Shown piece by piece: positions 10,269 to 29,847 of a stretch of DNA of 64,000 nt. Where the stretch lies: positions 84,114-148,113 of the forward strand of contig CAWDTQ010000010.1 in assembly GCA_963805315.1 (NCBI GenBank). Direction: 5' to 3'. The notes below the pieces were generated by a model that made no database searches, was not told where the DNA came from, and saw nothing but the letters and a program-made list of their open reading frames with translations. The translations under genes were made by a program, and so were the position numbers. Source of the DNA: an uncultured delta proteobacterium. GTDB lineage: Bacteria; Desulfobacterota; Binatia; Binatales; Binataceae. The stretch's first letter is position 1. Every line of letters begins with the position of its first letter.

Positions 10269-10371
10269 AACTCACTCAACGCCGACGAGTACGGCGACGC
10301 CGCCAGCATCACAATGTCACCCTCACCGGCACCGGCTCGTGAGTTAGTGGAGGGCAAAATAAGTTCTAACA

Positions 10372-10455
10372 GGGGCGAAGCCCCGCATCTTTCCGGATAC
10401 TGGGTGCAGGGGTCACCCCTGCCCAGGGAAGTGTGAAACCCACGGCGGGTTTCAC
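10372..10455 (+). repeat. Family-1 triple-hairpin REP-like element, copy A
   Basis: ggggcgaagcccc / gcaggggtcacccctgc / gtgaaaccc-N5-gggtttcac; same 84-bp layout at 18116 and 20529. Confidence 0.9.
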
Positions 10456-10563
10456 ATTAGATGAAGTGATCTACCCTTCCCCGATCCGCTGGCGTCACGC
10501 TCGCAACTACTTTCAGCTCAAATTGGATATCTATAAAAGGTTGTTTCTCTTTTCAAGAGCTAT

Positions 10564-10592
10564 TTGACTTAAGATTAGCGTAATGGTATCTA
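10564..10592 (+). promoter_or_regulatory. Putative sigma70-type promoter of the first FG-GAP gene
   Basis: TTGACT-N17-TATCTA; the paralogous leader has TTGACT-N17-TAGCTT at 14797-14825. Confidence 0.4.
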
Positions 10593-10679
10593 AGAGTCAG
10601 ATATTTGCGACTAGCCAACCCTTGAGTCGCTTCTGAAACGCCGCGAAGGGGAATGCACTGCTGGTCGGGGGGCATTCGC

Positions 10680-13600: not shown

Positions 13601-14653
13601 CCGAGCGGGCTCGGGCCACATAGCGCGACGCTGTCGGTCACCGACAACACCGCGAGCAGTCCGCAGCATGTGGCGGCCAGCGGCACCGGCACCGCCGACA
13701 TGACGGTCGCGCCCGCGAGTTACGGGTTCGGCAGCGTCAAGGACGGCTCCAAGGCGGTCAAGGCGATCGTCGTGCACAACTATCAGACCAACCCGGTCTC
13801 GCTCAGTGAAAACTTCAGCGGACCCAACGCCGGCGATTTCTCGATCACCGGGGGTACCTGCACCGCGACCCTGGCCTCGAAGACAGTTTGTACGCTGGTC
13901 GTTACTTTCGCGCCAACATCTACCGGCACCGAATCGGCGACCATGACGGTTACCGACAGCCCCGATCCGCTCGGTCCGTACACGGTCTCATTCAGCGCGT
14001 CGGCAACCATTCCAGAATCGCTGTCGGCGCCGAAGTTGATCTTCGGCTATGTCTACCAGACGGCGTCCAAGACGTTGAACATCACTCTTACCAATAAGGC
14101 CACCAGCGGCGCGATCACGCTCACCGGAACGAACATCGGCGGCGCCAACTCAGGCGACTTCGCCGTGACGGGCGGGACATGCACCGGCACGCTGGCGGCG
14201 TCGTCGAGCTGCACCTACGCGCTGACGTTTACTCCGACCGAGACGGCGGAGAGCGGCACGCTTTCAATCGGCGTCGCGGAAGATCCCAATGGCGGCCCCC
14301 CGGCAGTCGGCCTGAGCGGAACCGGATTGGTGCCGCTTAGGGTAGTCCCGGCGAGCATCGCTTTCGGCACCGTCGCAGGCGGCCATTCCTCGATCAACAG
14401 GACCGTGACGGTGATCAACAGCGGCGGCGGATCGGTTTCATTGAGCGAGAGCGTCACCGGCGCCAACTTCGCCGACTTCGCGGTGACGGGAGGGACGTGC
14501 AATGGCACATTGGCGGGTGGCGGCGCATCATGCACCTATCTGCTGAAGTTCGCCCCGAGCATCGTCGGCGCCGAGAGCGCGACGCTCGGCGTCACCGCCG
14601 CCAGCGATGCAGCCAGCCCCCACAACGTAACCCTGACAGGCACCGGTAACTAG
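10680..14653 (+). CDS. Secreted Calx-beta plus 14 FG-GAP repeat protein with three C-terminal Ig-like domains; frameshift ~13555
   Basis: 14 x DVNGDG(K/R)PDLIVAN..NTVSVLLNT; Calx-beta YQTQDGTALAGTDY; ORFs 10653-13574 and 13544-14653 join; GTG 10680 matches the paralog start. Confidence 0.8.
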
Positions 14654-14672
14654 CCGGCTATCCCGATGACGA

Positions 14673-14705
14673 AACCGCCGGAGCGAATCAATCGCTCCGG
14701 CGGTT
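14673..14705 (+). terminator. Stem-loop, likely terminator
   Basis: aaccgccggagcga-atcaa-tcgctccggcggtt, 20 bp after the stop codon. Confidence 0.7.
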
Positions 14706-14916
14706 CAAGCCATACCTATCTGCCGGCGCGCCGCTTGGAACTACTTTCAGCTATAATTCGATACCTATAAGTCGTTTTTTCGTTTACAAGAGCTATTTGA
14801 CTTAATGCTAACGCGTCAGTAGCTTACGCCTCCAATATCTGCGACTAGTCCAGCCTCGGGTCGCTTCTGAAACGCTGCGAACGGGGGAATGCGCAGCTAG
14901 TCGGGGGGGAATTCGC

Positions 14917-17900
14917 GTGAGACATAAGAGCCTAACGGCGACGATACTGCTGCTCGCAGTGGGGATTGCGTTTTCGGTGTGGGGCGATCCCACCTCGATC
15001 AGCATATCGAACGGCAGCGCTACGGTAACCAGCAGTTCTTCAACCACACTTGATTTTCCAATCTCGCGCAGCGGCGATACCAGCTACGACGCCTTCGTTC
15101 AGTATCAGACTTTAGACGGCACCGCGATCGCCGGGACCGACTACACAGCGGCGAGCGGGTCGATTGTGATTCCGGCCGGCACGACCAGCTCGATGATTCC
15201 GGTGACGGTCGCCGGCAGCAACAGCAATTCCCCGACAAAACTTTTCAGATGCTATTGCTGGGCGGCGGCGGTGCAGCGAGGAGCTTCACGCCCAGCTTCG
15301 CCACCCAGCAGACCTTCGCCACGGGCAGCGTTCCGAAATCGGTGACGGCGGCGGACGTGAATGGTGACGGCAAACCCGACCTGATAGTCCGAATCTACGA
15401 CAGCAACACGGTTTCGGTGCTGCTCAACACCACCGCCCCGGGCGCCGCCACGCCCAGCTTCGCTACCCAGCAGACCTTCGCTGTTGGCAGCGAACCGCAA
15501 TTCGGTGACGGTGGCGGACATCAACGGCGACGGCAAGCCCGACCTGATCGTGGCGAACGAGGGTAGCAACACGGTCTCGGTGCTGCTCAACACCACCGCC
15601 CCGGGGGCCAGCCACGCCGAGCTTCGCCACCCAGCAGACTTTCGCCACGGGCAGCAGCCCGATTTCGGTGACGGCGGCCGACGTCAACGGCGACGGCAAG
15701 CCCGACCTGATCGTCGCGAATGCTAACGACAACACCGTATCGGTGCTGCTCAACACCACCGCGCCGGGTGCCAGCACCGCCAGCTTCGCGCCCAGCAGAC
15801 TTCGCCACTGGCAGCGAGCCCGCGGTCGGTGACGGCGGCGGACGTCAATGGCGACGGCAAGCCCGACCTGATCGTCGCGAACCAAACCGGCAACACGCGT
15901 CTCGGTGCTGCTCAACACCACCGCCCCGGGCGCCAGCCACACCCAGCTTCGCCGCCCAGCAAACCTTTGCCACCGGCAGGACCCGATTCTGTGATGGCGG
16001 CAGACGTCAACGGCGACGGCAAGCCCGACCTGATCGTAGCGAATCAAATCGGCACAGTTTCAGTGCTGCTCAACACCACCGCTCCCGGTGCGCCACGCCC
16101 AGCTTCGCCACTCAGCAGACCTTTACGACGGGCAGCACTCCGGTGTCGGTGACAACTGGCAGACCTCAACGGCGACGGCAAGCCGGACCTGATCACGGCC
16201 AACGCCGGCGGCAACACGGTCTCAGTGCTGCTCAACACCACTCGCGCCGACGGCGCCGACGCGCCTAGCTTCGCCACCCAGCAGACCTTCGCCACGGGCA
16301 GCGAGCCGCGCTCGGTGACGGTGGCCGACGTCAACGGCGACGGCAAGCCTGACCTGATCGTCGCGAATTACGCGAGCAACACGGTCTCGGTGCTGCTCAA
16401 CACCACCGCCCGCGCCGACGACGCCTTTGACGGCAATAGCTTCGCCACCCAGCAGACCTTCGCCACGGGCAACGATCCGGACTCGGTGACGGCGGCCGAC
16501 GTCAACGGCGACGGCAAGCCCGACCTGATCGTGGCGAATTCGGTACCGGCTGCGGCAACACGGTATCGGTGCTCCTCAACACCACCGCCCCAGGCGCCGC
16601 CACGCCCAGCTTCGCCACCCAGCAGACTTTTGCCACAGGCACCGGCCCGTCTTCGGTGACAGCTGCCGACATCAACGGCGACGGCAAACCCGACCTGATC
16701 GTAGCGAATTTGGAAGCCCCCAACACGGTGTCGGTGCTACTCAACACCACCGCCCCGGGAGCTACCACCCCCAGCTTCGCCACTCAGCAGACCTTTGCCA
16801 CAGGCAACAATCCAAGCTCAGTGACGGCGGTCGACGTAAACGGCGACGGCAGACCGGACCTAATCGTTGCGAACGGATTTGACTCCACGGTCTCGGTGCT
16901 GCTCAACACCACCGCCCCGGGTGCTGCCACGCTCAGCTTCGCCGCCCAGCACACCTTTGCTACGGGCAGTTTCGACCACCCGTTCTCGGTGACGGCAGCC
17001 GACGTCAACGGAGACGGCAAGCCCGACCTGATCGTTGCGGATGAAACCGCCACTGGTACGGTCTCGGTGCTGCTCAACACCACGGTGCCGGGAGCCACCA
17101 CTCCCAGCTTCGCCACCCAGCAGACTTTTGCCGTAGGCAGCTACGCGGCCTCGGTGACGGCGGCGGACGTCAACGGCGACGGCAAGCTGGACCTGATCGT
17201 CGCGAACGAAAACGACAGCACCGTATCGGTACTGCTCAACACGACGGCCCCGGGTGTCACCGCGCCCAGCTTCGCGACAGAGCAGACCTTCTCCACGGGC
17301 AGTTCCCCGACAGCGGTGACGATCGCCGACATCAACGGCGACGGCAAGCCCGACCTCATCGTGGCGAATGTGCTAGGCGGCACGGTCTCGGTGCTGCTCA
17401 ACAACCTGTACGGCACCAATCTGTCCGGCAGCCCGGCGACCGGAACAATCCACTACAGCGTACCGACGCCAACACCGACCGCGACCGCCACAGCTACTGC
17501 GACGGCCACTGCCACATCGACGGCCACCGCAACCGCAACGCCCACAGCTACTGCAACCGCCACGGCAACTGCTGTCGCGACCTCGACCGCCACCGCGACG
17601 GCCACCCCAACAGCCACGGTGACGCCGACTGCTACGCCTACGCCGACCGGTGAAGGCCTGGAGGAGCTGGTAGTCAATCCCTCACCCCCCTCCAAACTCA
17701 ACTTCGGCACCGTCAGCGTCGGCACCACCAGCGCCCCGCAGACCGCTACGATAACCAACGAATTCAACGACGACACGGTCGACTTCTTCGGGACCTTTCT
17801 CATGGCGAACTTCGTCAAGACCGGCAGCACCTGCGGTGCTAGTTTGGGACCCCTGCAATCGTGTCAGGTCATTTCGCATGCAAGCCGAAGACTACCGGCT

Positions 17901-18013
17901 CTCTCATCGGAGCCTATGCGTTCCTGTACAGCTCCGCGGAGATAGCTGGACTTCGCGATGGCGACGATTACCTAAAGATCGGCGTAGTCCAATTCACCTG
18001 CACTGGCGATTGA
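14917..18013 (+). CDS. Paralogous Calx-beta/FG-GAP protein with Thr/Ala linker and single Ig-like domain; many frameshifts (pseudogene or read errors)
   Basis: ORF fragments 14917, 15249, 15484, 15829, 16225, 16569 all carry the same FG-GAP unit; the C-terminus matches the NHL gene and ends GVVQFTCTGD at TGA 18011-18013. Confidence 0.7.
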
Positions 18014-18115
18014 AACTATTCAACGCCGACGAGTACAGCGACGCGGCCAGCCCGCACAACGTCACCCTCACCGGCACCGGCTCGTGAGTCAGTGGAGGCA
18101 AAATAAGTTCTAACA

Positions 18116-18199
18116 GGGGCGAAGCCCCGCATCTTTCCGGATACTGGGTGCAGGGGTCACCCCTGCCCAGGGAAGTGTGAAACCCACGGAGGGTTTCAC
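18116..18199 (+). repeat. Family-1 REP-like element, copy B
   Basis: Near-identical to 10372-10455. Confidence 0.9.
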
Positions 18200-18320
18200 A
18201 TTAGATGAAGTGATCTCCCCTTCCCCCTCCCTGCCCTGCCATTTTTCCTTTGCTCATTCACCTGCTAATGTTCACCCCGAAAATCGCCCCACCGTCGGTA
18301 CCGGAAAGGAGAACGCGACC

Positions 18321-18983
18321 ATGACCATCAAAGAGCGAATCGGGTTTGTGACCCTGACTCTCGCCGCCGCATTCGTCGGAGGCGCTGTGTCCGGCCATAT
18401 TTTCGCCGCCCGCGCCGTCGACGCTGCCGCCGCCCCTAGGATGATCACCGCGCAGAAGTTCATGCTCGTTGACTCCCGCGGCAAGACCCGCGGCGAGTTC
18501 AACGTCACCCGCAAAGGCGTCGCGCAAATCGCCGTCTTCGATGGAACCGGGACCTTGCGCGCCGGACTCGGCGTCGGCGCCGACGGCGCCCCCGCTCTCG
18601 GTATCTACGGCCGCGACGGCAAGCCGCGCGCCGAGGTCGGACTCACCCGCAGCGTCGCCCGCGTCGTGCTGTTCGACGCGAACGCCAATCCGCAAGCCAT
18701 GCTCGGCGTCGCTCCCGACGGCCAGAGCGGCATCGGCCTGATGGACACAAAAGGCAATCCGCGCGCCTCGATCATCGTGCAGCCCGACGGTACTCCCACG
18801 CTGCGCCTAGCCGACGAGCATCGCGGCCGCATCGGCATGGATATGACGCCCGACGGACGGCCCGGCCTCGCACTGCTCGGCAACGACGGCAAGACCCGCG
18901 CCTCGCTCACCCTCAATACCGACGGCGCGGGCGCGCTGACGTTGTTCGACGCCGGCGGCAACCCGGTCAACTCCGTCCCCTGA
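18321..18983 (+). CDS. Exported/membrane-anchored protein with ~22-aa beta-strand repeats (hypothetical)
   Basis: aaggag RBS before ATG 18321; N-terminal hydrophobic helix; repeats L.L.D..G..RA.L.V..DG.P. Confidence 0.75.
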   Translation: MTIKERIGFVTLTLAAAFVGGAVSGHIFAARAVDAAAAPRMITAQKFMLVDSRGKTRGEFNVTRKGVAQIAVFDGTGTLRAGLGVGADGAPALGIYGRDGKPRAEVGLTRSVARVVLFDANANPQAMLGVAPDGQSGIGLMDTKGNPRASIIVQPDGTPTLRLADEHRGRIGMDMTPDGRPGLALLGNDGKTRASLTLNTDGAGALTLFDAGGNPVNSVP

Positions 18984-18996
18984 TCGACGCTTCACA

Positions 18997-19024
18997 GGGC
19001 GGCCCGCATCGGCCGCCCTTTTTT
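18997..19024 (+). terminator. Rho-independent terminator
   Basis: gggcggcc-cgcatc-ggccgccc followed by tttttt. Confidence 0.85.
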
Positions 19025-19081
19025 CTCAGCGCAGCGAGTAACTAAGTTGTTGGATTACTAAAAAGAGTGGAAAAAGAACCA

Positions 19082-19576
19082 ATGCCACGACGCTCTTCCG
19101 CTCCACTCGTCCGCGTCCTGTTGATCGCCGCGCTTTCGGCCGCGCTCTTTGGATGCGGTTCGATCAAGCAATCAGTCGAGCCCCAGCCGCCGACGCCCCA
19201 GCAGCAGGCCGAGCAGCTCGAGCCGATGCTTTCTGCGGCCGGCTTCCGAATGCTTCCCGCGGACACTCCCGAGCGCCAGACCCAACTGCAGTCTCTGGTA
19301 CCGCTCCAGGTCAATTACTATGTCGGCAAGACCGGCAACCTGCACTACTACATGGCCGATCCTGACTACTGTAAGTGTATGTACATCGGCAGCGAGCAGG
19401 ACTATCAGCAGTTCGAGAAGTTGAAGCTCAACCAACAGTACCAGGCAAAGGAAGGCGAGATTTCACGCGAGAACCTGGAAGCCCAGCAGATGGAAGAGAT
19501 GCAGTTCCAGGAAGAGGCCTTCAATCCTTACGGCCTGGGCCTCGTCGGCCCGATGGGCCCTGCGATGTACTGGTGA
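19082..19576 (+). CDS. Putative lipoprotein
   Basis: Basic N-terminus, hydrophobic stretch, lipobox LFGC; ORF open from 19067. Confidence 0.7.
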   Translation: MPRRSSAPLVRVLLIAALSAALFGCGSIKQSVEPQPPTPQQQAEQLEPMLSAAGFRMLPADTPERQTQLQSLVPLQVNYYVGKTGNLHYYMADPDYCKCMYIGSEQDYQQFEKLKLNQQYQAKEGEISRENLEAQQMEEMQFQEEAFNPYGLGLVGPMGPAMYW

Positions 19577-19641
19577 CCACGACAACCACCGCCGTCCTCT
19601 CAGATTGATCTCGCAGCCGATTTCAACTTTCCTGAATCACA

Positions 19642-20457
19642 ATGCACTTTGACGCTTTCGTCGAGCGATGCCGCGCGCAATGGCCCGAGTTTGCCGACTC
19701 TCGCCGCCTCGCCCGCTCGACTCATCCCGCCGACCGCTCGCTCTCGCACATCCTCGACGAGATCCCCGCGATGGCCACCGAGAACAAGCTCCGCCTCCTC
19801 AATTGCGCGGTCGCGTCGCTCGACGCCGCCGGCGGCGAAGTTTACGTCGAAGTGGGATGCTACAAAGGTGCTTCTCTGGTCGGCGCCGCGGCCTCCAACC
19901 CGCGCGCACGCATCTTCGCATGCGACAATTTCTCGCAGTTCGACGGCGCCGCCGACGCGCTCCGCCGCACCCTCGACGCGCACACCGCGCCCGGCCAGGT
20001 CATCTTCCACGACCGCGACTTCCGCGACTTCCTCGCCGCCGCGCCATGGCGTCCCGCGCGCATCGGCGCCTACTTCTACGACGGCGGCCACTCCTTTGCC
20101 GATCAGTATGACGGCGTCGCACTCGCAATCCCTCACCTCGCCGACGACGCCCTCGTCATCATCGACGACACCAACAAACGCGCCGCGCGCTCCGCCAACC
20201 GCCTCGTCGCGCGCGCCGTCCCCGGCTTCGAGCTCGTCCTCGACTTGCGAACGCCGCGCAACCACTCTCCCACATGGTGGAACGGCGTGCAGGTCTTCCG
20301 CTATCGACGCCACCCGAACGACGCCGCGATTCGATTCCCCAACTCGGGCTTCGCGCTAAGAAAACTAATTTACGACGATATCTTCCTGAAAATGAAACAC
20401 AGCCGCCGAGCCCGCCGAGCACTCCGCAAATCGATCAAGCAGCGCACCAAGGCCTGA
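19642..20457 (+). CDS. Class I SAM-dependent methyltransferase (Methyltransf_24-like)
   Basis: YVEVGCYKGASL, FACDNF, YFYDGGH, VIIDD motifs. Confidence 0.8.
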   Translation: MHFDAFVERCRAQWPEFADSRRLARSTHPADRSLSHILDEIPAMATENKLRLLNCAVASLDAAGGEVYVEVGCYKGASLVGAAASNPRARIFACDNFSQFDGAADALRRTLDAHTAPGQVIFHDRDFRDFLAAAPWRPARIGAYFYDGGHSFADQYDGVALAIPHLADDALVIIDDTNKRAARSANRLVARAVPGFELVLDLRTPRNHSPTWWNGVQVFRYRRHPNDAAIRFPNSGFALRKLIYDDIFLKMKHSRRARRALRKSIKQRTKA

Positions 20458-20528
20458 CCTGTCTTGCGATTAAGCAGATGGCGACAAAAGTCGCCATCCG
20501 CGCGCAGCCCCCAACCCAACTTCGAACA

Positions 20529-20612
20529 GGGGCGAAGCCCCGCATCTTTCCTAACACTGGGTGCAGGGGTCACCCCTGCCGAAGGAAGCGTGAAACCCAC
20601 CGCGGGTTTCAC
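20529..20612 (+). repeat. Family-1 REP-like element, copy C
   Basis: Same three hairpins; ends 2 bp from the portal stop codon. Confidence 0.9.
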
Positions 20613-20614
20613 AT

Positions 20615-21987
20615 CTAATTAAGTTCCCCCGTCTCCTTGATCGCCCCGAGCACCGCCTCCCCCTCCCCCGCCTGCGCAATCCCCAACCTGTCGAGTATCG
20701 TCTTCTGACCGACTCTCAATCCCCTGTCCGCCAGCATCGCGACGATTTCCGCAAAGACCTTGGCATCGCTGTCGTCCGGCAAACCCAGCTCTATCTTCGG
20801 ATACTGGCGCTGCGGTCCCATGTTCAGCTCGACGATCGGCCGCACGAGATCGCGTGCGAGCGTCGCCGCCAGCCGTCGCGCATCGGCGCTCAAAATGTCC
20901 CGCCGCACTGCGTCATGCACCTGCGCCGCCGCTCGCGAGCCTCCCGAACTCGGCATCTCGGTAGTCAATGTCTGCCCGAGCACTGCCTTACTCACTTGCG
21001 CGTCTAGGTATTGGCAAAAACTCTGATACAACTCCGAGCTGCCATTCTGATGCGCCTCAGTGAACTCTATTACCATCGACTCCGGCATTATCGCCGCCGC
21101 GTCAGTGCCTATTCGCGATACCGCATTGAGTAATGCCTGCTTGTCCTGTTCCGACGCCCCCGGATGGTATTTGCCTACTCTCAATGGCTGCCCGAATACC
21201 TCGGTGAACGTTACCCAGTCCTTTAGTACGTAGTTCTTGAACAGGTATGCCCACCCGGCCGCGCGCGCCAGCCCGCCTCTTATCGGCAGACCGGCTTTCG
21301 CCTTGGCGATATGCGTGATGAACTTGAAGGGCGCGAGCGGCGCAGTCATCGGCTGTATTCCGATTCCGCGTCCATTGACGAATAGATCCCTTCTCCGCCA
21401 AAATGCGTCGGCTGTTGCGCGTGCGCATCGCCTGCGACCGGAATCGCCTCGCTTTTCAGCGTGCGCACCAGCATCTCCTCGCCCGAGATCCAGTCGAACG
21501 CGAACCAGCGCGGGTCGCGCCACTTCAATTGTGCGGGAAACCATTCTCGCCCAGAGGTATCCCACATTATCTCGGTCGCCGAAAATCCTTTGCCCACCGC
21601 GTCGAGCACGTCGAACAGCACGCTGTCGAGCTGCATCGGTCCCTCGCAGATCATCTCGCGCACCATAGCCGCCGCCCGTTGATCATCGGCGCCGCCCGAC
21701 GCCGCCCGCACCACGATCTCCAGTTGCGCGACCGCGTTCTTGCGAGTGCTGAGCACGGCCAGGTAATGGAGATCCTTTTCTTCAATTTCCTCGGCCAGCT
21801 CGAGATACAGATATGGGTCTCCGAACTCGGCCTGCCGGAGTATTCCCGACAGCCGTTCCGGCGTGAGCCCGATCGACGGATGCATCACCGAATATATATT
21901 TCGCACGCCGGCCATCGTCGGCGCAGCCTGCTCCTCGCGCAACATCCCTGTATCAACTTCGCGTCCGTATGCGTCATAGAGTGTCAT
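20615..21987 (-). CDS. Mu gp29-like portal protein (DUF935); frameshift ~21400
   Basis: LELAEEIEEKDLHY..VLSTRK.AV, RDPRWFAFD, LAPFKFITH, FTEVFGQPLRVGKY, ISKAVLGQTLTT-like, AQVHDAVRRDI motifs across two ORFs. Confidence 0.85.
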
Positions 21988-22004
21988 TGTATCTCTCCAG
22001 AGGA

Positions 22005-22154
22005 CTAGTCAGTTGTATGTTCTTTGGACGCCGCTTCGCCGATTTTCAAAAACCATTCGCCGCCGCACCGATGGCACGCGCCGGGAAGTCGAATAAGCGC
22101 GAGTATAAACTCATACCCACACTCCTCGCATTTCCATCTCCAGTAGCTATTCAT
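22005..22154 (-). CDS. Small CxxC-CxxC zinc-ribbon protein (49 aa)
   Basis: MNSYWRWKCEECGYEF...GACHRCGGEWF..., between terminase and portal. Confidence 0.55.
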   Translation of the reverse strand: MNSYWRWKCEECGYEFILALIRLPGACHRCGGEWFLKIGEAASKEHTTD

Positions 22155-22208
22155 CTGACTACAGCTGAGTGCATAGCGTGAACGCCACACATTCTCCGCG
22201 ATTGTGAA

Positions 22209-22239
22209 CCTTCCCTGAGGGAAGGGGTTAAAGGTTAGG
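22209..22239. repeat. Family-2 palindromic repeat right after the terminase stop
   Basis: ccttccctgagggaaggggttaaaggttagg, a variant of 4676-4709. Confidence 0.75.
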
Positions 22240-22242
22240 TTC

Positions 22243-23766
22243 CTAAAACCCACGAAGCCGCCCTCCAATGCTTTCGTCTTCCACCGGCGCCGCCCCAAAA
22301 GGATTCCCCAGCCCCTCGAAACCTTCCCGCTTACCGCGCTTGCGTGCCGCGATGTACGCGATCTGGCCCGCGTCCGCGCGCGACGCGAAGAACGCGAGCG
22401 CCGCCGCCATCGCCGCGTCGCCATGCCGTCCCTTGCCGTCGCTCCCCGCGCGCCGCTCGGAAATCTTCGCCACGCCACCCTCGAGCACGAACGCGCGATG
22501 GTCCGCGAGCACGTCGGCGTCCTTCGGAATTTCGATCGTGCCGTCCTCGAACGCCGCCTTATAGCGCGGCATATTTTCGCGATACCACGACTCCGACAGC
22601 ATCACCTGCACGATTCGCGCGCCGTAGCGCTGCGCCGCCGTCTCGGCCAGGTATTGTCCGTTGCCGCGCGCATCCATCGCGCCCGCGGTAAATCGCGGCA
22701 ACCGATCGGCGATATAGAAAAGCACCTGCTCCTGGTTGCGAAACGGGATATTGCGCAGCTCGACGACGAACGGCGTCCGTCGCGTCAGGTTCGGCGCGAT
22801 CTGCAGCGGCCAGATGACAGTCAGGTCTCCCGACCGTCCGAAATCTTCGCCGAAAAAACTTGTTAGCGACGCGTCGAGCGTCGCCAGCACCGGCCCGACA
22901 TTGTCCTCGCACCACGCCTGCGTCTCCGAGTAACGTTGCGCTTCCGGACGGCCCGAAAATTCCGCCGGCATTTCCCATCGCAGGATCGGGATACCCGCTT
23001 TCATCCGCGCCTCGATCAGCACCGAGCTCAGGTACGCGCCCGACGACGCGCGCGGGACACAGAACAACTCTTCGCCGACGTTGTCGCCGTAGTAATCGAC
23101 GATCTGCTGGCGCCACTCGCGCTGCTTGTCCTCGCTCCACTCGACTTCGCTCTGCTCGCAGATTTTTCTGTATAGTCCGTCCGCCAATGCGTCGTCGAAA
23201 GTAGTACGATGAAGTGAGTATGGGCGCCGGCCCGCGCGAATCTCACTGATTAGTTCATTGAAAGCATTGTTGGCGCCGTTGTGAGTACTAATTATCCGCA
23301 CCAGTCCGCCCCACATGGTAAACGCGAGCGCGGCTTTCAGCAGGCCCGGCAAGTCTTCATGGAACGCGGCTTCGTCGATAACCGCGCAGCCGTCCTTGCC
23401 GCGCAGATTCGAAGGGCGCGACGAAAGCGCTACGATTTTGTGTCCTGACGCGAAGCGGATTCGGTAGGCGAGGATATCGGCGCGCTCGTCCGCCAGCACG
23501 ATTTCCTCGACCGCCTCCGCCGCGCGGTTGAACTTCACGGCCCAGCGCGCCGCCGCCTCGACGAACTCCAGCGCCATGTCCTTGTTGTAGCCGATATACC
23601 AGCCGTCGATTCCGGCGCGCCCAGTCGTAGCCGCGCCCAACGCGCGATCGGCAGCCTCGGTCCAGGTGATGCCTATGCGCCGCGATTTCTCGCTGACCTT
23701 GACCTGCGACTGATCGGCCAGCCATCGCCGCTGATAGGGAAGTAGTATTGAGAGCGGTTCACTCAT
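22243..23766 (-). CDS. Mu gp28-like terminase large subunit
   Basis: LLPYQRRW, EKSRRIGITW (Walker A-like), AVIDEAAF (Walker B), IISTHNG, GEDFGRSGDLTV, MDARGNGQYLAE, GRHGDAAMA. Confidence 0.9.
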   Translation of the reverse strand: MSEPLSILLPYQRRWLADQSQVKVSEKSRRIGITWTEAADRALGAATTGRAGIDGWYIGYNKDMALEFVEAAARWAVKFNRAAEAVEEIVLADERADILAYRIRFASGHKIVALSSRPSNLRGKDGCAVIDEAAFHEDLPGLLKAALAFTMWGGLVRIISTHNGANNAFNELISEIRAGRRPYSLHRTTFDDALADGLYRKICEQSEVEWSEDKQREWRQQIVDYYGDNVGEELFCVPRASSGAYLSSVLIEARMKAGIPILRWEMPAEFSGRPEAQRYSETQAWCEDNVGPVLATLDASLTSFFGEDFGRSGDLTVIWPLQIAPNLTRRTPFVVELRNIPFRNQEQVLFYIADRLPRFTAGAMDARGNGQYLAETAAQRYGARIVQVMLSESWYRENMPRYKAAFEDGTIEIPKDADVLADHRAFVLEGGVAKISERRAGSDGKGRHGDAAMAAALAFFASRADAGQIAYIAARKRGKREGFEGLGNPFGAAPVEDESIGGRLRGF

Positions 23767-23827
23767 TAGTTAGTAGCTATTCCAGTACGATTAGCTACCC
23801 TTCGGATCGAGGGTTCTCCTGCATCTT

Positions 23828-23848
23828 CCTCTCCCTGTTAGGGAGAGG
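23828..23848. repeat. Family-2 hairpin cctctccctgttagggagagg
   Basis: Same core at 25668, 25955 and 26270. Confidence 0.8.
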
Positions 23849-24021
23849 ACAACCTGAGTCAGTTCGAGCGGTCGCGGTGAGTGAGTGCCAGTCAGCGCAA
23901 ATACTGCCTCTCGACTCGCACGACGACGAATCTGCGTCGCGATGACCTCTCCTTGCGCGCTCCTTCGACCGCGTCGACCTGCTCGGCCAAGGGAGGTGTC
24001 AGAAGTCTTCGATGAGCTCTC

Positions 24022-24658
24022 CTAAATCTCCAGCAGCACTGCCTTGATCTGCTCCGCCGCGTTCTTGCTCAGGCCCTTCGCCTGCGCCTCGTCGATCTTC
24101 TTCTCCGCCGCCGCTACTCCCGCGCGCGCCCTGTCTGCCCACTTCCGATGCTCCGTTTCTGCCCTCGCCAGTCCCGACACGCTGCGCGCCAGCGCCGTGA
24201 TATTCACCGGCGCGATCGTCGTCTCCTCTCCATTCGCGCCTTCCGTCGTTCTTCTCGTTCGCCGCCACCAGCACTTCGAACAACCGCGTCTGCACCATCC
24301 TCATCAGCGCGCTCTGCATCTGCTCGTCATCGCCTTTGAATTGCTCGCAAACGATTCGCGCCTGCTCCGTCGCCATCTGGATCGCGTCGAGCCGCCGCTC
24401 GAACTTCTGCCCATACTTGTGAATCGCCGCGTGCGAAATCTCGAAACCATTGTCCCCCAGCCACTTCGACAATTGCCGGCAGCTATGCATCGTCCCTCGC
24501 TAAGCATCTGGTCGAGCTGCTCTTTCAAATCCGGCGGCAGCTTTTTTATCTTCCACGTCTTGAACGGAATCGGATCGATCGGCACGCGTCTGGGATGTTT
24601 CCCGCTTCCGCTTCTCCTGAAGGGAGAGGGGCTTCGCGGCCTGGTTTTTCTTCTTCAT
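24022..24658 (-). CDS. Mu gp27-like (DUF3486) putative terminase small subunit; about three frameshifts
   Basis: Fragments KIKKLPPDLKEQLDQML / LSKWLGDNGFEISHAAIHKYGQKFERRL / LARSVSGLARAE...GLSKNAAEQIKAVLLEI; position just before terL. Confidence 0.7.
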
Positions 24659-24666
24659 CGCGCCGC

Positions 24667-24981
24667 TCACCAGTACTTGCGCGGGCGCGCTACTCCCGCC
24701 GGCGACGGGAAGTTGTATTCGACGACGTCGACGCCGCTGGCCGTCAGCTTCGCGAACCAGGTTTCCGTGCCCTCGCCTTCGAGTTCGAGCAGGCCGAGGT
24801 CGCGCAGGTAGGCGAGTTCGCGGCGGACAGTGTTGAGCGACAGCGCGAGCTTGATATCGGCGAGCACCCGCCAGATTATCTGCTCGGAGACCGCTATCGG
24901 CCGTCCGGCATCGACCACGCGCAGCATCCGCCACCGCGCTTCCTCGCGATTTTTTTGTTCGAGATCAATTCCGTCCGGCAT
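24667..24981 (-). CDS. Mu gp26-like winged-helix protein
   Basis: REEARWRMLRVV...RRELAYLRDLGLL...LTASGVDVVEY...GVARP pattern; position before gp27. Confidence 0.7.
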   Translation of the reverse strand: MPDGIDLEQKNREEARWRMLRVVDAGRPIAVSEQIIWRVLADIKLALSLNTVRRELAYLRDLGLLELEGEGTETWFAKLTASGVDVVEYNFPSPAGVARPRKYW

Positions 24982-25267
24982 AAAGCCTTTCCTTTACCTC
25001 ACCGATTTCTTCACGCATCTCTTCGCGCATCGCGTCCAATTTTGCGTCCAACGTCCCGCTGAACCTGATCCAGTCCTCGCGCCGCACGTATTCCAGCGGC
25101 AGCGACGCGCGCAGCTCGAACAGCAACCGCTCGACCTCCTGCCATCGTTCGGAATCGCGCTGAGAGGCCGTGCGATGACGGTCGAGCATCGATCGCACGG
25201 TCGCGATATTGATTCCCGCGAGCGTCACCAGCACCAGCAGGAAGGTCGCAATCGCGTCCCAGCTCAT
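24965..25267 (-). CDS. Mu gp25-like membrane-anchored coiled-coil protein
   Basis: N-terminal TM, LPLEYVRREDW...LDAKLD motif; start overlaps the upstream stop. Confidence 0.65.
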   Translation of the reverse strand: MSWDAIATFLLVLVTLAGINIATVRSMLDRHRTASQRDSERWQEVERLLFELRASLPLEYVRREDWIRFSGTLDAKLDAMREEMREEIGEVKERLYAGRN

Positions 25268-25545
25268 TGCTCGCCTCCGTCGCGATCGCTGCGCATCAGT
25301 TTCTCCATCTCGCGCGGCTCGGGCTCGGTCGATTTCTTCAGCATCACGGCGCCCGCCATCGCCAGCAGCACGATCCCCAGACCCTTGCCGTACGCGTCCG
25401 CGTCGGCGGGCTCGAAGCGGCGGACCTGCCAGACCTGGACGCACCAGAACGCGATATATGCGATCGCGCCGACGACCCCGACGACCCGCGCCGCGTCGAA
25501 GGTAAGATTGTCCTTGCCGGTCAGAATGTCGGTGAACAGCTTCAT
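25264..25545 (-). CDS. Putative holin (2 TM)
   Basis: ILTGKDNLTFDAARV, two hydrophobic helices, charged tail KKSTEP; lies in the lysis cluster. Confidence 0.55.
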   Translation of the reverse strand: MKLFTDILTGKDNLTFDAARVVGVVGAIAYIAFWCVQVWQVRRFEPADADAYGKGLGIVLLAMAGAVMLKKSTEPEPREMEKLMRSDRDGGEQ

Positions 25546-25628
25546 GATTTGAACAGGAAGTATCCCCAGACGATGCCGAAAATGCATAGTGCAATAGGTA
25601 TTGCTGAAATAGTAAGTGAGTACGTCAT
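25542..25628 (-). CDS. 28-aa single-TM peptide translationally coupled to the putative holin
   Basis: MTYSLTISAIPIALCIFGIVWGYFLFKS; its TGA overlaps the holin ATG (ATGA). Confidence 0.45.
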   Translation of the reverse strand: MTYSLTISAIPIALCIFGIVWGYFLFKS

Positions 25629-25667
25629 TTGATTAGCCTGTTGAGCGTTTGTGTGAGTATGTAATAG

Positions 25668-25975
25668 CCTCTCCCTGTCAGGGAGAGGCCGCGCCTCCGG
25701 CGCGGGTGAGGGTCCAATTACAAGATGACCTTCCGCGCGCACACGAATTCACCTACCACGGGAGTAAACCGCGCAGCTTACTGAGTAATGCGCCCGCAAA
25801 TGTCGGCGCGCTTGTAGTTGCGCCTTGAGGTCCCGCTGCTTTTTGTGTCATCCCGAGCGGAGTCTGCGGAGCGGCAGAGGCACTGGGCAAGCTTGCTTGA
25901 CGACACGCAAGAAGTCATCCGAAATTTGGACCCTCACCCGCGCCGGAGGCGCGGCCTCTCCCTGATAGGGAGAGG
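25668..25975. repeat. 48-bp inverted repeats (25668-25715 / 25928-25975) around a ~212-bp core; MITE/BIME-like
   Basis: cctctccctgtcagggagaggccgcgcctccggcgcgggtgagggtcc and its reverse complement, one mismatch. Confidence 0.85.
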
Positions 25976-26485
25976 CAATCGCAGCGGCGGCGCCGCGCAT
26001 CCTTTGAGGATCGCGTCGCGCTCCTCGACCGCGCTCTTCAGCACGTCCACCGTCGCGGCGTACGATCTAATCGTGTCCGCCGGCGCGGAGTCCGGAGTCA
26101 GCATCGCGATCGCCAACGGCGGTTGCTGCAACGCGGGCACATCGCAGTAGATCGGAGTGGCGACGGGAATCTTAACCATCACCGGCCGCGGCGCCGGCTC
26201 CGCCTGCGCCGCGCATCCTGCGAGGGCTAGCGCCAGAATGTAAGTGAGCGAACGCCGCTCCTTCTGTCCCCTCTCCCTGTTAGGGAGAGGATGAAGGTGA
26301 GGGTCCTTATACAGCGCGCTATTCTGCGCGCGATTCAGGATTCTGCCTTTCCTAACGCTGCGAGAGACGCAGAACCTAACCCCTAACCCCTTCCCGCGCG
26401 GGAAGGGGAACCGGACGCGCATTATACGCAACGCTCTCATGACGGCGAGAAAAGACAGACGGAGATCGGACAGAATCTTCACCAT
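25934..26485 (-). CDS. Putative outer-membrane spanin (Rz1-like lipoprotein) with in-frame palindromic insertions
   Basis: Lipobox LALAGC followed by Pro-rich VKIPVATPIYCDVP; ATG 26485 overlaps the i-spanin end; repeats at 26270-26306 and 26375-26408 lie inside the ORF. Confidence 0.5.
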   Translation of the reverse strand: MVKILSDLRLSFLAVMRALRIMRVRFPFPRGKGLGVRFCVSRSVRKGRILNRAQNSALYKDPHLHPLPNRERGQKERRSLTYILALALAGCAAQAEPAPRPVMVKIPVATPIYCDVPALQQPPLAIAMLTPDSAPADTIRSYAATVDVLKSAVEERDAILKGCAAPPLRLPLPIRERPRLRRG

Positions 26486-26880
26486 TGGCCTAGCTCCTGG
26501 GCCTGCTCGTTGCCCCATTTGATTGCGCCTGCGCAGTCTGCCGCGATCGGCGCGCTCTCGATCGCAGTCGCGCGGCGCGACTCTGTCGAGGCCGACGCAA
26601 CCGCTGCCGCCGCGACATTCGCCTGGCGCGTCTCGGCCGCCGCCGCCGCCTCGTCGGCCGCCGACTTCATCGCGGCGACGGCCTGGTTCTGCCGCGCGAC
26701 GGCCGCTTCGCACGCGGCCTCGGCGCTCTTCAGGTCGGCAACTTGCGCGGTCATCGTCGCAACTTGCGCGACGGCCGAGTTGCGCTCATGCACCAGCACG
26801 GCGCGGTAAACGAGCAGTCCCGCGAGCGCGAGCGCAATCGCGATCGGCTTCCAGTAAGTGAGCAACGCAATCGCCGGCAT
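26479..26880 (-). CDS. Putative inner-membrane spanin (Rz-like)
   Basis: N-terminal TM, long Ala-rich coiled coil, C-terminal Cys; follows the endolysin. Confidence 0.6.
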   Translation of the reverse strand: MPAIALLTYWKPIAIALALAGLLVYRAVLVHERNSAVAQVATMTAQVADLKSAEAACEAAVARQNQAVAAMKSAADEAAAAAETRQANVAAAAVASASTESRRATAIESAPIAADCAGAIKWGNEQAQELGQW

Positions 26881-26884
26881 CGCG

Positions 26885-27175
26885 TCAAACCTTCGGGGCG
26901 GCCGCGGCAGCCGCGGCGACAGCAGGCTGCGCCGCCGCGTGATGTCCGCTCACGGCGGCCGCCAGTTTTTCGGTCGCGGCGGCATGATGCTCGATCGCAA
27001 CGACCGCGGTGCTGGTGGCGACGGAGCTTTCGACCGTCGTCAGGCGCGCTTCGATTCCATGGATCGCCGCCTCGACATCGGCGACCAGCTTCTGTCCGAA
27101 CAGCGAGCCGAGGATAAAGCCGGCGAGGCCAACGATCGGATACGCACCGGCGGCCAATATTTCGAATACGCTCAT
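26885..27175 (-). CDS. Small TM plus coiled-coil protein of the lysis cluster
   Basis: Hydrophobic N-terminus GLAGFILGSLFG; Ala-rich tail. Confidence 0.55.
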   Translation of the reverse strand: MSVFEILAAGAYPIVGLAGFILGSLFGQKLVADVEAAIHGIEARLTTVESSVATSTAVVAIEHHAAATEKLAAAVSGHHAAAQPAVAAAAAAAPKV

Positions 27176-27245
27176 CTCGATTCACCTCTTCGAATATTTC
27201 GGGCAGTTTTTGCAGAAAGACATTTTGGAATTCGTTCGTCGAGTT

Positions 27246-27761
27246 TTATTCGTAGGCACGGTTCAACCATCCGTCGAGAAATTCGCGGTCGCCTGGAACG
27301 AGCGCGGCAGTGACGCGATAATGGCCGGCGGCTTCGGCGCGAATCGCCGCCATCAGCGCGGCCGGGTTGGCGCGGCCCGCCTCGAGCGCGGTGCCCTCCC
27401 CTATCACGCCGTCTTCCGTCACCCGCCGGCCGCATGCTCGCAGCGCGCGCTGCAGACATTCGATCGCATGGCCGGCGCCGATATTGACGGCGAGATCGAA
27501 GGTCTTGGCCGCGGCGGCGGCGGGCAGCCGCGCGAAGCCGAATTGCAGCCACCATTCGCGCCAGTAGATTTTCACGGCAGCGTCGCGGGTGAGCGCCGCG
27601 ATATTCACGCCGGGATTCGATCGCGCCGAAATCCCGAACCTGGTGGCGCCGCCGCGGTCGTCCGGATTCGACGAATAGCCGCCCTCGTCGGCGAGCACGC
27701 GCCCGACGGCGGCGAGGAATTCCGGGCTGTACGCGTCAGGAGCGCTGGCTGATGAGTCCAC
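27246..27761 (-). CDS. Glycoside hydrolase family 108 endolysin with PG-binding domain
   Basis: EGGYSSNPDDRGGATRFGIS, FDLAVNIG, LQRAL, DGVIG..T, FLDGWLNR. Confidence 0.9.
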   Translation of the reverse strand: MDSSASAPDAYSPEFLAAVGRVLADEGGYSSNPDDRGGATRFGISARSNPGVNIAALTRDAAVKIYWREWWLQFGFARLPAAAAAKTFDLAVNIGAGHAIECLQRALRACGRRVTEDGVIGEGTALEAGRANPAALMAAIRAEAAGHYRVTAALVPGDREFLDGWLNRAYE

Positions 27762-28239
27762 GTTTCAATCGCTCGTCGAGCGGCGCGGACGTTGGCGGAA
27801 ATGCGGCGGCGGCCGGCTCGGGTGCGCGTTTCAATGCGAGCACCTTGTACACGTAACGCTCGGTGCATCGGAGCTCGCGCGCGATGCGCGAGATGCTGAC
27901 GTTGTCAGCGCGCATCGCGACGATTCGCACGCGCCGGCGCAAATGATTGCTGGTGACGGGAACCAGGATGCGATCGCTGCCGAAGGTGTGCGCCATCGCC
28001 ATCGCCCCGCGCAGCCCGATCGAGCGCGCGATTTGATCGCCGGGCGCAGGAGCCATCGGGACATACAGGCGACGGCCGCCGAAGTCCGCGATCAGCTTGT
28101 CGGCAGCGTCCTCGCCGACCGAATGAACGATCAGATCGTAGAGCGTAGTGCGCTCGGTGGACGCGAACGGATCGAAAGCCGGCGCCCGCGACGGGACGTG
28201 GTTGCTGAATGCGGACAGCCGGCTGGGGATTGCGTTCAT
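27736..28239 (-). CDS. Mor/C-like late transcription activator
   Basis: LIADFGGRRLYVP and C-terminal HTH SISRIARELRCTERYVYKVL. Confidence 0.75.
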   Translation of the reverse strand: MNAIPSRLSAFSNHVPSRAPAFDPFASTERTTLYDLIVHSVGEDAADKLIADFGGRRLYVPMAPAPGDQIARSIGLRGAMAMAHTFGSDRILVPVTSNHLRRRVRIVAMRADNVSISRIARELRCTERYVYKVLALKRAPEPAAAAFPPTSAPLDERLKRGLISQRS

Positions 28240-28464
28240 AAGCCGTAGGCGAGTCGAAGATTGGAAGGAATCGATCCGATATGGCGGTCGCGATCGTAAA
28301 CCAGCCGCCAACTGATCTCGACGTTGTCGTGCACGCACCTGTGGCATAGGCCGTGGTTGCGCATTACCTCGGCCTGGGTGGCGGCTTCGTGACACCACAG
28401 ACAGGCGACGAGGCGACTAGCAACGGTGGGACGATCTTGATCGTCGAGAGGTCGCGGGTTCCAT
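28236..28464 (-). CDS. Small CxxC-CxxC zinc-finger protein coupled to Mor; one frameshift near the start
   Basis: ggagga RBS then ATG 28464; VACLWCH-x15-LCHRCVH; TGA overlaps the Mor ATG (ATGA). Confidence 0.5.
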
Positions 28465-28750
28465 AAATCCTCCGCGCGAGTTGGGGAGCGTCGAGTGCCG
28501 GCAGGGTGATCGAACTGTAGACAAATCGTGAATGCAGCGGCGGGCGCGAGGTCGCGAACTGAGGTAATAGTATTCAGGCGAGCTCGATCGGCGGCGCGCG
28601 ATGCGGGGCGAAGCGGTAACAGGCATGGATTGGTAACAGGGGGTGAGCAATCGCGATTTGGGTGGCGGGAAAATTGGGCTGGCGCCCGAGGGCGGATTGA
28701 TTGTGGCGAGATCATGCGCTTTATGAATCTTATTTCACATTAGGAGATTT

Positions 28751-29413
28751 ATGTCAACTACAGTAGTTGACGCCGCATTTCGCTCGCGGCTCACGCAAGT
28801 GATCCATTCGTTCGGCTCAGTGGTGGCGCTGGCGACGGCGGTCGGGGTTTCGGACAACGCAATCTACAAGTGGCTGTCGGGCCGTGGACAACCGAGCGTC
28901 GCGAACCTGGTGTCGTTGGCGCGAGCGGGGCGCGTGTCGGTCGAGTGGCTGGCGACGGGGGCCGAGCCGACGCAGGGGGCGCAGGCGATCAAGCGCGCGG
29001 TGGGGCACGGCGACTTCATCTTCATGCCGCGCAACCGGATGCGATTCTCGAGCGGGCGCGGCGGGACCCTTAGCAGCGAGCAGGTGGTCGATTCGATCGC
29101 GTTCCGGGCGGAGTGGGTGAAGCGGGTGCTCCACGCCGAGTCGCGCGACCTGATCCTGATCGAAGTGGTGGGCGATTCGATGGCGCCGACGATCGAGGAT
29201 TCGGACTTGATCGTCGCCAACCTGGCGGAGCCGCGCTTTCGACAGGACGGAATCTACCTGCTGCGCCACGACAGCGGGCTCACGGTGAAGCGAATCCAGC
29301 GGCGGCCGGACGGCAAGTTGATGATGCGCAGCGACAATCCGAAATACGAAACGATGGTGGTGGCGACGGTGAAAGTGATCGGGCGGGTGATCTGGATTGG
29401 CGGCTGCGTGTGA
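28751..29413 (+). CDS. CI/LexA-type repressor (XRE HTH plus S24 peptidase)
   Basis: aggag RBS; LATAVGVSDNAIYKWLSG HTH; VVGDSMAPTI and LTVKRIQ catalytic Ser/Lys; SDNPKY; IGRVIW. Confidence 0.9.
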   Translation: MSTTVVDAAFRSRLTQVIHSFGSVVALATAVGVSDNAIYKWLSGRGQPSVANLVSLARAGRVSVEWLATGAEPTQGAQAIKRAVGHGDFIFMPRNRMRFSSGRGGTLSSEQVVDSIAFRAEWVKRVLHAESRDLILIEVVGDSMAPTIEDSDLIVANLAEPRFRQDGIYLLRHDSGLTVKRIQRRPDGKLMMRSDNPKYETMVVATVKVIGRVIWIGGCV

Positions 29414-29424
29414 TAGGCGGCGCG

Positions 29425-29847
29425 TCAACGCGACTGCGCATCGGCGATGACGCCGAATTGAGTGATGAACAGAGCGCACGCGATCATGGCGAGGCCCTTG
29501 AGGAACATCGAGACGTTGACGCCGCGCATCACGGGATCGGAAAGCGTGACTATCGCGGTGCCGTGCACGACGATGGTGACGGGGATGAGAAAAATCACGA
29601 TGAGCCAGGCGCCGAGGCGCGGGCGATAGTTGAAGAGAATCATCGCGGCGCCGACGAGCTCGACGACGGCGGAAATCGTCACCCAGAATGCGCGAAATGG
29701 AATCGGCGCGGGCATCAGGTCGATGTAACTCTGCATCGCGGTGAAGTGCGTGATGCCGGAGAGAAAGAAAATCAGCGTGAAGAGAATGCGGGCGGTGAGG
29801 CCGATGGCGGGACTGATGATCTTCAGATCGTTGTCGTGGGTTTCCAT
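29425..29847 (-). CDS. DoxX family membrane protein
   Basis: ARILFTLIFFLSGITHF, VELVGA..IL, four hydrophobic segments. Confidence 0.8.
   Translation of the reverse strand: METHDNDLKIISPAIGLTARILFTLIFFLSGITHFTAMQSYIDLMPAPIPFRAFWVTISAVVELVGAAMILFNYRPRLGAWLIVIFLIPVTIVVHGTAIVTLSDPVMRGVNVSMFLKGLAMIACALFITQFGVIADAQSR

Follow-up and report, generated by a model that had tools for sequence, protein, structure and literature searches.

The 64-kb window analysed here, to which all coordinates without a contig label refer, comes from a genome of Candidatus Binatus (G000, the source genome), a genus of the Binataceae, which is an uncultured family of soil and peat bacteria. Between positions 20615 and 29413, termed locus A, it carries a compact set of genes resembling those of the transposable phages Mu and BcepMu. 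The genes from a zinc-ribbon open reading frame (ORF) to the portal gene form a single operon running from 28464 to 20615 on the minus strand, and a repressor gene diverges from it on the plus strand. Families were assigned with Pfam and PHROG profiles, whereas identities to BcepMu were obtained by protein comparison. The features of the locus are the following:

28751..29413, plus strand: repressor (Peptidase_S24, E 1.4e-18, C-terminal; HTH_3, E 2.4e-8, N-terminal)
28465..28750: divergent control region (alignment, 11 species)
28236..28464, minus strand: first cistron, CxxC...CxxC zinc-ribbon protein (73 aa in relatives; ribosome-binding site and ATG in 11/11 species)
27736..28239, minus strand: Mor/C-family late transcriptional activator, 167 aa from MNAIPSRL (PF08765, E 1.2e-7; phrog_836, E 3e-19)
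27246..27761, minus strand: endolysin, GH108 and PG_binding_3 (PF05838, E 6e-20; PF09374, E 4e-8)
25934..27175, minus strand: lysis accessory block (position, membrane segments, lipobox)
26885-27175, minus strand: 96-aa protein with one membrane helix, in the accessory block
26479-26880, minus strand: i-spanin-like protein, in the accessory block
Lipobox at 26236, minus strand: o-spanin-like lipoprotein, in the accessory block (gene interrupted at 26253-26419 by two copies of a repetitive extragenic palindromic (REP) repeat)
25264..25587, minus strand: 107-aa holin-like protein with two membrane helices (assigned from the helices)
24965..25267, minus strand: Mu gp25-like small membrane protein (phrog_462, E 1.2e-13)
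24667..24981, minus strand: Mu gp26-like protein (phrog_436, E 8.5e-27)
24022..24585, minus strand: small terminase subunit TerS, Mu gp27/DUF3486 (PF11985, E 6e-19 on the middle piece)
22243..23766, minus strand: large terminase subunit TerL, intact, 507 aa (58% identity to BcepMu gp28; phrog_2)
20615..21987, minus strand: Mu-type portal, Portal_Mu (PF06074, E 1e-75 and 1e-25 on two pieces)
20496..20638: host REP-type repeat (131 other genome copies), which overlaps the last portal codons and marks the end of the locus

The repressor contains both the GDSM and the VKR motif of the LexA/cI-type self-cleaving S24 peptidase domain and is 71-89% identical among congeners. The stop codon of the zinc-ribbon cistron overlaps the Mor start codon (ATGA), and the start of the endolysin gene, whose product carries the EGGY motif, overlaps the end of the Mor gene. 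We infer lysis roles for the accessory-block proteins from their position, their membrane segments and the lipobox. The block occupies a slot of variable content between the endolysin and gp25 genes (seen in L012, L013, L015 and L018): many congeners have two to four small lipoprotein genes and a gene for a Big_2-like protein in place of the genes for the 96-aa, i-spanin-like and 107-aa proteins, and in one case the slot holds a permuted-papain-like protein. In the relatives that keep it, unsplit elements among them (see below), the 107-aa protein is 53-80% identical. Searches of Pfam and PHROG gave no match for the zinc-ribbon, 96-aa, i-spanin-like and 107-aa proteins. The C-terminal half of the gp25-like protein is conserved in all relatives, and the gp26-like protein is 83-97% identical within the genus.

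An earlier interpretation made from the letters of this stretch, referred to here as the sequence-only reading, had listed a switch, an activator, an endolysin, spanins, a holin, gp25 to gp27, terminase and portal, and the profile matches confirmed this gene set where it had been placed. It had also described an operon ending at the portal stop codon with host genes on both sides. Beyond the portal stop lies a Methyltransf_24 gene (19642-20457), and on the other side a DoxX gene (29425-29847) begins 11 nt past the repressor stop and is followed by a carboxyltransferase gene. No capsid, tail or transposase gene was found within locus A, which agrees with the claim that capsid and transposase genes are missing from it. 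The composition is host-like as claimed, with 62.3% GC in locus A and 61.4% in the genome, and three host REP-type repeat families with 131, 24 and 57 other copies in the genome are represented in it. These repeats (26253-26419 and 20496-20638) are inserted in or beside coding sequence of the locus; their copies in relatives translate to FPFPRGKGLGVRF-like stretches within lipoprotein ORFs.

The sequence-only reading had proposed that this is one locus of a split gene transfer agent (GTA) whose head and tail genes lie elsewhere. A tblastn search of the whole genome with BcepMu proteins found such an unlinked protease, gpT capsid and tail cluster, locus B, on a different contig (C14:304548-318545), where it is flanked by the host gene murF and an ABC ATPase gene. 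Every gene of locus B is intact in the source genome:

Head genes: Mu-like protease I/scaffold (Mu-like_Pro, E 1e-71), virion protein (phrog_1731), Mu-like_gpT capsid (E 2e-93)
Tail genes: Gp36, Gp37, sheath, Phage_tube, tail chaperone, an embedded RRM gene, tape measure
Baseplate and fibre genes: GpU, tail protein X, gpD, spike V, gpW (GPW_gp25), Baseplate_J, gpI, two short fibre proteins

Among the conserved structural genes of locus B, the distal fibre gene is the most variable (52-82% identity). The tape measure (C14:310617-311426) has 269 aa compared with 846 aa in BcepMu and varies in length among relatives (36-49% identity); from its shortness, the contractile tail is predicted to be unusually short. 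The chaperone and tape-measure genes are separated by the gene for an RRM_1 RNA-binding protein (C14:311463-311744, or L112:11463-11744, minus strand, 93 aa, E 7.5e-22), which is kept across the genus with a ratio of nonsynonymous to synonymous substitution rates (dN/dS) of 0.07 and also in several unsplit elements. Neither tblastn with BcepMu gp30 and gp31 nor a search with PF04233 (Mu F) detected the Mu F and G genes in the genome.

Loci A and B, together called the element below, were found between unchanged host flanks in the first sample of 24 congeners, with a single exception (G004) in which the contig ends inside the locus A flank. In most Binatus species the two loci are colinear on one contig, at a distance of 5-30 kb from each other, in the order repressor, operon to portal, methyltransferase gene, host genes, ABC gene, protease to fibres, murF. 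The portal and protease genes are parted by 5-40 kb of host DNA, which holds a lipoprotein gene, a membrane protein gene and genes for NHL-repeat surface proteins, and the loci span 28-53 kb or lie far apart. In the source genome the counterpart of this insert is the region left of the methyltransferase gene (1-19600), which carries a lipoprotein gene and genes for NHL, FG-GAP and Thr-rich surface proteins; the break between the two halves falls in this repeat-rich region. Several other Binataceae genera possess a single contiguous element of 23-25 kb (G489, G210, G504, G554, G569, L098 and L108), in which no other gene separates portal from protease and the repressor is close to Mor. The RRM gene is usually present in these contiguous elements, and transposase, MuB, gemA, F and G genes are absent from them. 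In two such genera (g18 and g287) the first cistron encodes a DnaA_C-like helix-turn-helix protein, not a zinc ribbon.

The family survey covered 165 Binataceae species from 30 genera, including 47 species of Binatus. The capsid gene was present in all 47 Binatus species, in 121 of the 165 Binataceae species and in 22 of the 30 genera, mostly as a single intact copy (76-99% identity), and TerL was found in 44 of the 47 Binatus species and in about 120 of the 165 family members. According to a hand count, both genes occur in 111 of the 165 genomes, neither occurs in 35 and only one in 19, many of the latter being incomplete metagenome-assembled genomes (MAGs). An even sample of the phylum yielded a close capsid homologue only within the Binataceae; outside the family, the Mu-like capsids found in 23 of 396 sampled genomes are of the ordinary type (38-45% identity).

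Selection on the element was estimated as median pairwise dN/dS by the method of Nei and Gojobori (NG86) for pairs with dS of 0.05-2. The values in locus A were 0.13 for TerL, 0.13 for the N-terminal part of the portal, 0.10 for gp26, 0.17 for the repressor and 0.27 for the endolysin. In locus B they were 0.06 for the capsid, 0.05 for the tube, 0.11 for the sheath, 0.17 for the protease, 0.12 for gpJ, 0.32 for the distal fibre and 0.51 for the tape measure, and the flanking host genes gave 0.09-0.26. Pairwise protein distances of the element and of the flanking host genes are correlated (Pearson r 0.77-0.99), and at the genus level the identities of TerL and capsid to the source genome follow RpoB identity (rho 0.79 and 0.70, respectively). 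By these measures, both loci look like host genes in their conservation and inheritance. Conserved synteny, vertical phylogeny and a dN/dS below 1 were what the sequence-only reading expected of a domesticated system: synteny holds throughout the genus, most of the family shares the gene set, divergence follows that of the host, and dN/dS is far below 1 (0.05-0.3) for most element genes.

The same reading had taken the genes to be intact, which does not hold for the source assembly. The portal gene lies in two pieces because of a 1-nt deletion near 21364, whereas relatives have one ORF of 457-461 aa. In the TerS gene, a -1 indel near 24496 and a +1 indel near 24248 distribute the sequence over three frames, and all three pieces are clean and conserved; intact TerS orthologues have about 200 aa (phrog_426, E 1e-34). 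A 7-nt insertion shifts the frame of the zinc-ribbon ORF after approximately codon 6. Most relatives have undamaged copies of these three genes. Errors in the consensus are the probable cause of the lesions, because rpoB and rpoC (C11:306694-316000) are frameshifted in the same assembly and split host genes are also seen in many related MAGs assembled from long reads; the open frame of rpoB has 1341 aa compared with 1370 aa in relatives, its N-terminus being in another frame. The rpoB and rpoC shifts point to frequent consensus indels, which may also explain the completeness estimate of 87.7% for this 16-contig genome. The state of the source genome's own copy is nevertheless uncertain.

If real, such indels, like the deletion of the portal gene in G453 and of baseplate genes in G018, would be expected of an ordinary decaying prophage remnant from which the early region, head and tail genes had been deleted while the rest drifted. 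We consider this explanation very improbable. The truncated layout is common to at least 44 Binatus species and most of the family, dN/dS remains at 0.05-0.3 at dS of about 0.5-1, the supposedly missing genes are intact at locus B, and the frameshifts in the portal, TerS and zinc-ribbon genes have counterparts in rpoB and rpoC. Moreover, a true remnant in the same genome behaves differently, being patchy. It is a separate Mu-like early region with the only Mu-type transposase in the genome:

C13:262719-272862 (L113): S24-type repressor, divergent 646-aa transposase, MuB-like ATPase, gemA, 647-aa tape-measure-like gene

This remnant, used as a control, was found in only 3 of 24 congeners and at other sites, and it shows the pattern to be expected of a mobile or decaying prophage in Binatus genomes. 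Its distribution indicates that related transposable phages still circulate in the genus. Its repressor and that of locus A share 34% identity. The absence of MuA and MuB that the sequence-only reading had anticipated was confirmed for the element, the only copies being those in the remnant: no DDE transposase or MuB-type ATPase was detected between repressor and Mor, in locus A, in locus B or in the unsplit elements. A second TerL with 51-68% identity occurs in some Binataceae (G015:C140, G557:C36, G535:C1, L093, L095 and L097); in L095 it adjoins gemA and Mu F, a sign of ordinary Mu-like prophages that are relatives of the domesticated element. Simple decay is therefore contradicted at the family level and can be dismissed as an account of the whole element; real losses have occurred in a few lineages (G018 and G453).

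Taken alone, locus A combines terminase, portal and lysis genes without a capsid gene, and the sequence-only reading had accordingly also considered a helper-dependent packaging satellite or a programmed-lysis module, either of which would work without locus B. Both proposals are scarcely credible. No integrase, replication or excision gene is present in locus A, which occupies a fixed place among host genes; throughout the family it is found together with locus B, and in several genera the two are physically contiguous. A satellite is further disfavoured by the complete virion that the element itself encodes, and a role in lysis only would leave the constraint on terminase (TerL in particular), portal and capsid unexplained. 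Two known classes were also compared with the element and rejected. Satellites resembling the phage-inducible chromosomal islands (PICI) do not fit a genome that lacks integrase and replication genes at the element and has its own capsid and tail genes, and a tailocin does not fit the presence of strongly constrained capsid, protease, portal, TerS and TerL genes.

The closest sequenced phages are the Burkholderia phage BcepMu (Bcepmuvirus) and phage Mu, with identities of 58% for TerL, 44% for the sheath (BcepMu gp39), 43% for gpJ and 38% for the tube. The element shares with both phages the gene order from the lysis genes through gp25, gp26, TerS and TerL to the portal and from the protease to the fibres. 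In contrast to them, it is not mobile and has no transposase, MuB, DUF3164, gemA, F or G genes; its tape measure has about one third of the BcepMu length, and in Binatus host genes lie between portal and protease. The Mu late-gene set is thus kept in order and is incomplete, F and G being absent and the portal gene standing directly before the protease gene in the unsplit copies. The late genes of Mu are organized in separate operons, one of which extends from lys past the portal gene as far as G, while the following one opens with the protease gene. This boundary before the protease gene is the exact site at which host DNA is inserted in Binatus. Locus A is quite probably one half, for control, lysis and packaging, of a domesticated Mu/BcepMu-like particle system fixed in the chromosome, and locus B its other half.

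GTAs, or viriforms, are characterized by virion-like particles, vertical transmission, packaging of mostly host DNA with no more than a portion of their own genome, and induction in a small subpopulation under host control (PMC9662315). The predicted products of loci A and B make up a full head, portal, terminase, contractile tail, baseplate, fibre and lysis set of the tailed-phage type. The same flanks within the genus, the host-tracking distances and the lack of mobility genes indicate vertical transmission, for which the evidence at family depth is correlative. The element resembles RcGTA of Rhodobacter capsulatus (Rhodogtaviriformidae), BaGTA of Bartonella and VSH-1 of Brachyspira in its phage-derived head, tail, packaging and lysis genes, in the lack of replication and integration genes, in vertical inheritance and in purifying selection, and it shares with RcGTA the splitting of genes over more than one locus. 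Unlike these three systems, it descends from a Mu/BcepMu-like phage with a contractile tail and resides in Binatota. It also differs from RcGTA, which is controlled by host regulators, in keeping a phage-type S24 repressor and a Mor activator. A literature search found no paper linking Binatota or Binatia with GTAs or domesticated prophages.

Repressors of the S24 type self-cleave on activated RecA, and Mor/C proteins activate the middle and late promoters of Mu. From the known roles of such families we infer how induction, trans-activation, packaging of host DNA and any transfer would proceed. In its descent from a contractile-tailed Mu/BcepMu-like ancestor, the system has shed the genes for transposition and replication as well as Mu F and G. 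The S24-type repressor would keep the leftward operon off until its self-cleavage, probably on DNA damage, allowed the zinc-ribbon protein and Mor to be made, and Mor would then activate the late genes, including locus B in trans. Heads and contractile tails would assemble, TerS and TerL would load chromosomal DNA through the portal, and the endolysin, holin and spanin proteins would lyse the producer cell. The released particles might act as a gene transfer agent or as killer particles of the PBSX type.

The alignment of the divergent control region revealed approximately 48 nearly invariant nt beside the repressor start and a poorly conserved middle part, and the region is closed by the conserved ribosome-binding site and ATG of the first cistron. 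A scan of this region for the sigma-70 promoter consensus and for terminators gave no match. Upstream of the protease gene, about 70 nt are almost invariant across the genus and hold the 17-nt palindrome GGCTGAAC-W-GTTCAGCC, around which a 29-nt motif (C14:318579-318607) precedes the protease/head operon. Seven further 29-mer sites were found (C14:164840, C14:341947, C14:48983, C7:394566, C15:161624, C15:203173 and C16:16612). At the eight loci the motif lies about 35-40 nt upstream of start codons, one of which belongs to a uvrC-like gene, with about one hit expected by chance. It looks like a candidate regulator site with both element and host targets. When the dyad was considered as a Mor site shared by the two loci, no copy within 6 mismatches was found in the window; one similar sequence occurs in a different genus, between mor and lys (L074). 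Its assignment as an SOS box was not supported either, since the recA upstream region lacks the dyad and lexA was not located by pattern.

PBSX, a defective prophage of Bacillus subtilis, is a repressor-controlled system conserved within its host group which encodes a complete contractile-tailed particle, terminase and lysis genes. Compared by description, the element is similar to it in its repressor control, in probable induction by damage and in its complete gene set for a contractile-tailed particle, and different from it in its Mu-like ancestry, its division into two loci in Binatus and its conservation throughout a family, whereas PBSX is one contiguous locus of Firmicutes. The element could have been kept because its contractile-tailed particles kill competing strains, with DNA packaging as a by-product, a possibility that we regard as unlikely but worth serious attention. 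The regulatory logic suits it, because PBSX likewise has a divergent repressor and a late operon that opens with a positive factor and continues with terminase, portal, head, tail and lysis genes. The variability of the distal fibre (52-82% identity, dN/dS 0.32) is as expected of a specificity determinant. A tail alone suffices for killing, whereas TerS, TerL, portal, protease and capsid rank with the most constrained genes of the element; this constraint is in turn compatible with a killer role, as PBSX itself retains head and packaging genes. The two functions, killing and gene transfer, are not separable from sequence alone.

Several observations weigh against a domesticated particle system that transfers genes. 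The tape measure is short (269 aa) and fast-evolving (dN/dS 0.51). The portal, TerS and zinc-ribbon genes are broken in the source assembly, and if these lesions are real, the source copy cannot package DNA. Locus A contains no match to the conserved dyad that precedes the protease gene, which leaves control of locus B by Mor as a proposal. Host flanks are not syntenic between genera, and vertical descent at family depth therefore rests on distance correlations. An unsplit copy of 23-25 kb could fit into one head if the head has a Mu-like capacity, unlike in classical GTAs; the two-locus span in Binatus (28-53 kb or more) could not, unless the head is large. Eight genera lack the element, G018 has lost some 5 kb of locus B, a stretch that begins with the chaperone gene and reaches into gpJ (baseplate, tape measure), and G453, the closest sampled relative, lacks the portal and carries several frameshifts; because of these losses the function of the element must be regarded as dispensable in some lineages. 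Finally, the system is known from its genes, and no particle, packaged DNA or transcript has been seen from these uncultured organisms. The proposal of a split GTA has been supported by every genomic test run, and on gene evidence the element is a strong candidate for a new gene transfer agent.

A more specific and rather doubtful idea concerns the cargo. If packaging were directional, took DNA directly out of the chromosome in the manner of Mu and started from a fixed site near the repressor end, headfuls would run from locus A across the insert between portal and protease genes, and the element would preferentially exchange this insert between cells. In Binatus the cargo would then be the 5-40 kb of variable surface-protein genes, namely NHL, FG-GAP and Thr-rich stalk cassettes.

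Only three GTA lineages with a known genetic basis have been formally classified (PMC9662315), and none of the three derives from a transposable phage or comes from Binatota. The element described here appears to be a Mu-derived system of the GTA or defective-prophage type that is conserved across the Binataceae. It would exemplify the conversion of a Mu-like phage into a host organelle, in which the transposition genes were lost first and the remainder was then split at a Mu operon boundary. The retained repressor and Mor switch provide a simple and testable handle on induction. Selection maintains the element in roughly two thirds of the Binataceae, whose members are abundant in soil and peat and uncultured, and it therefore likely matters to the biology of the host. 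If host DNA is indeed moved by it, the element would constitute a major route of gene exchange in a phylum for which no genetic tools are available.

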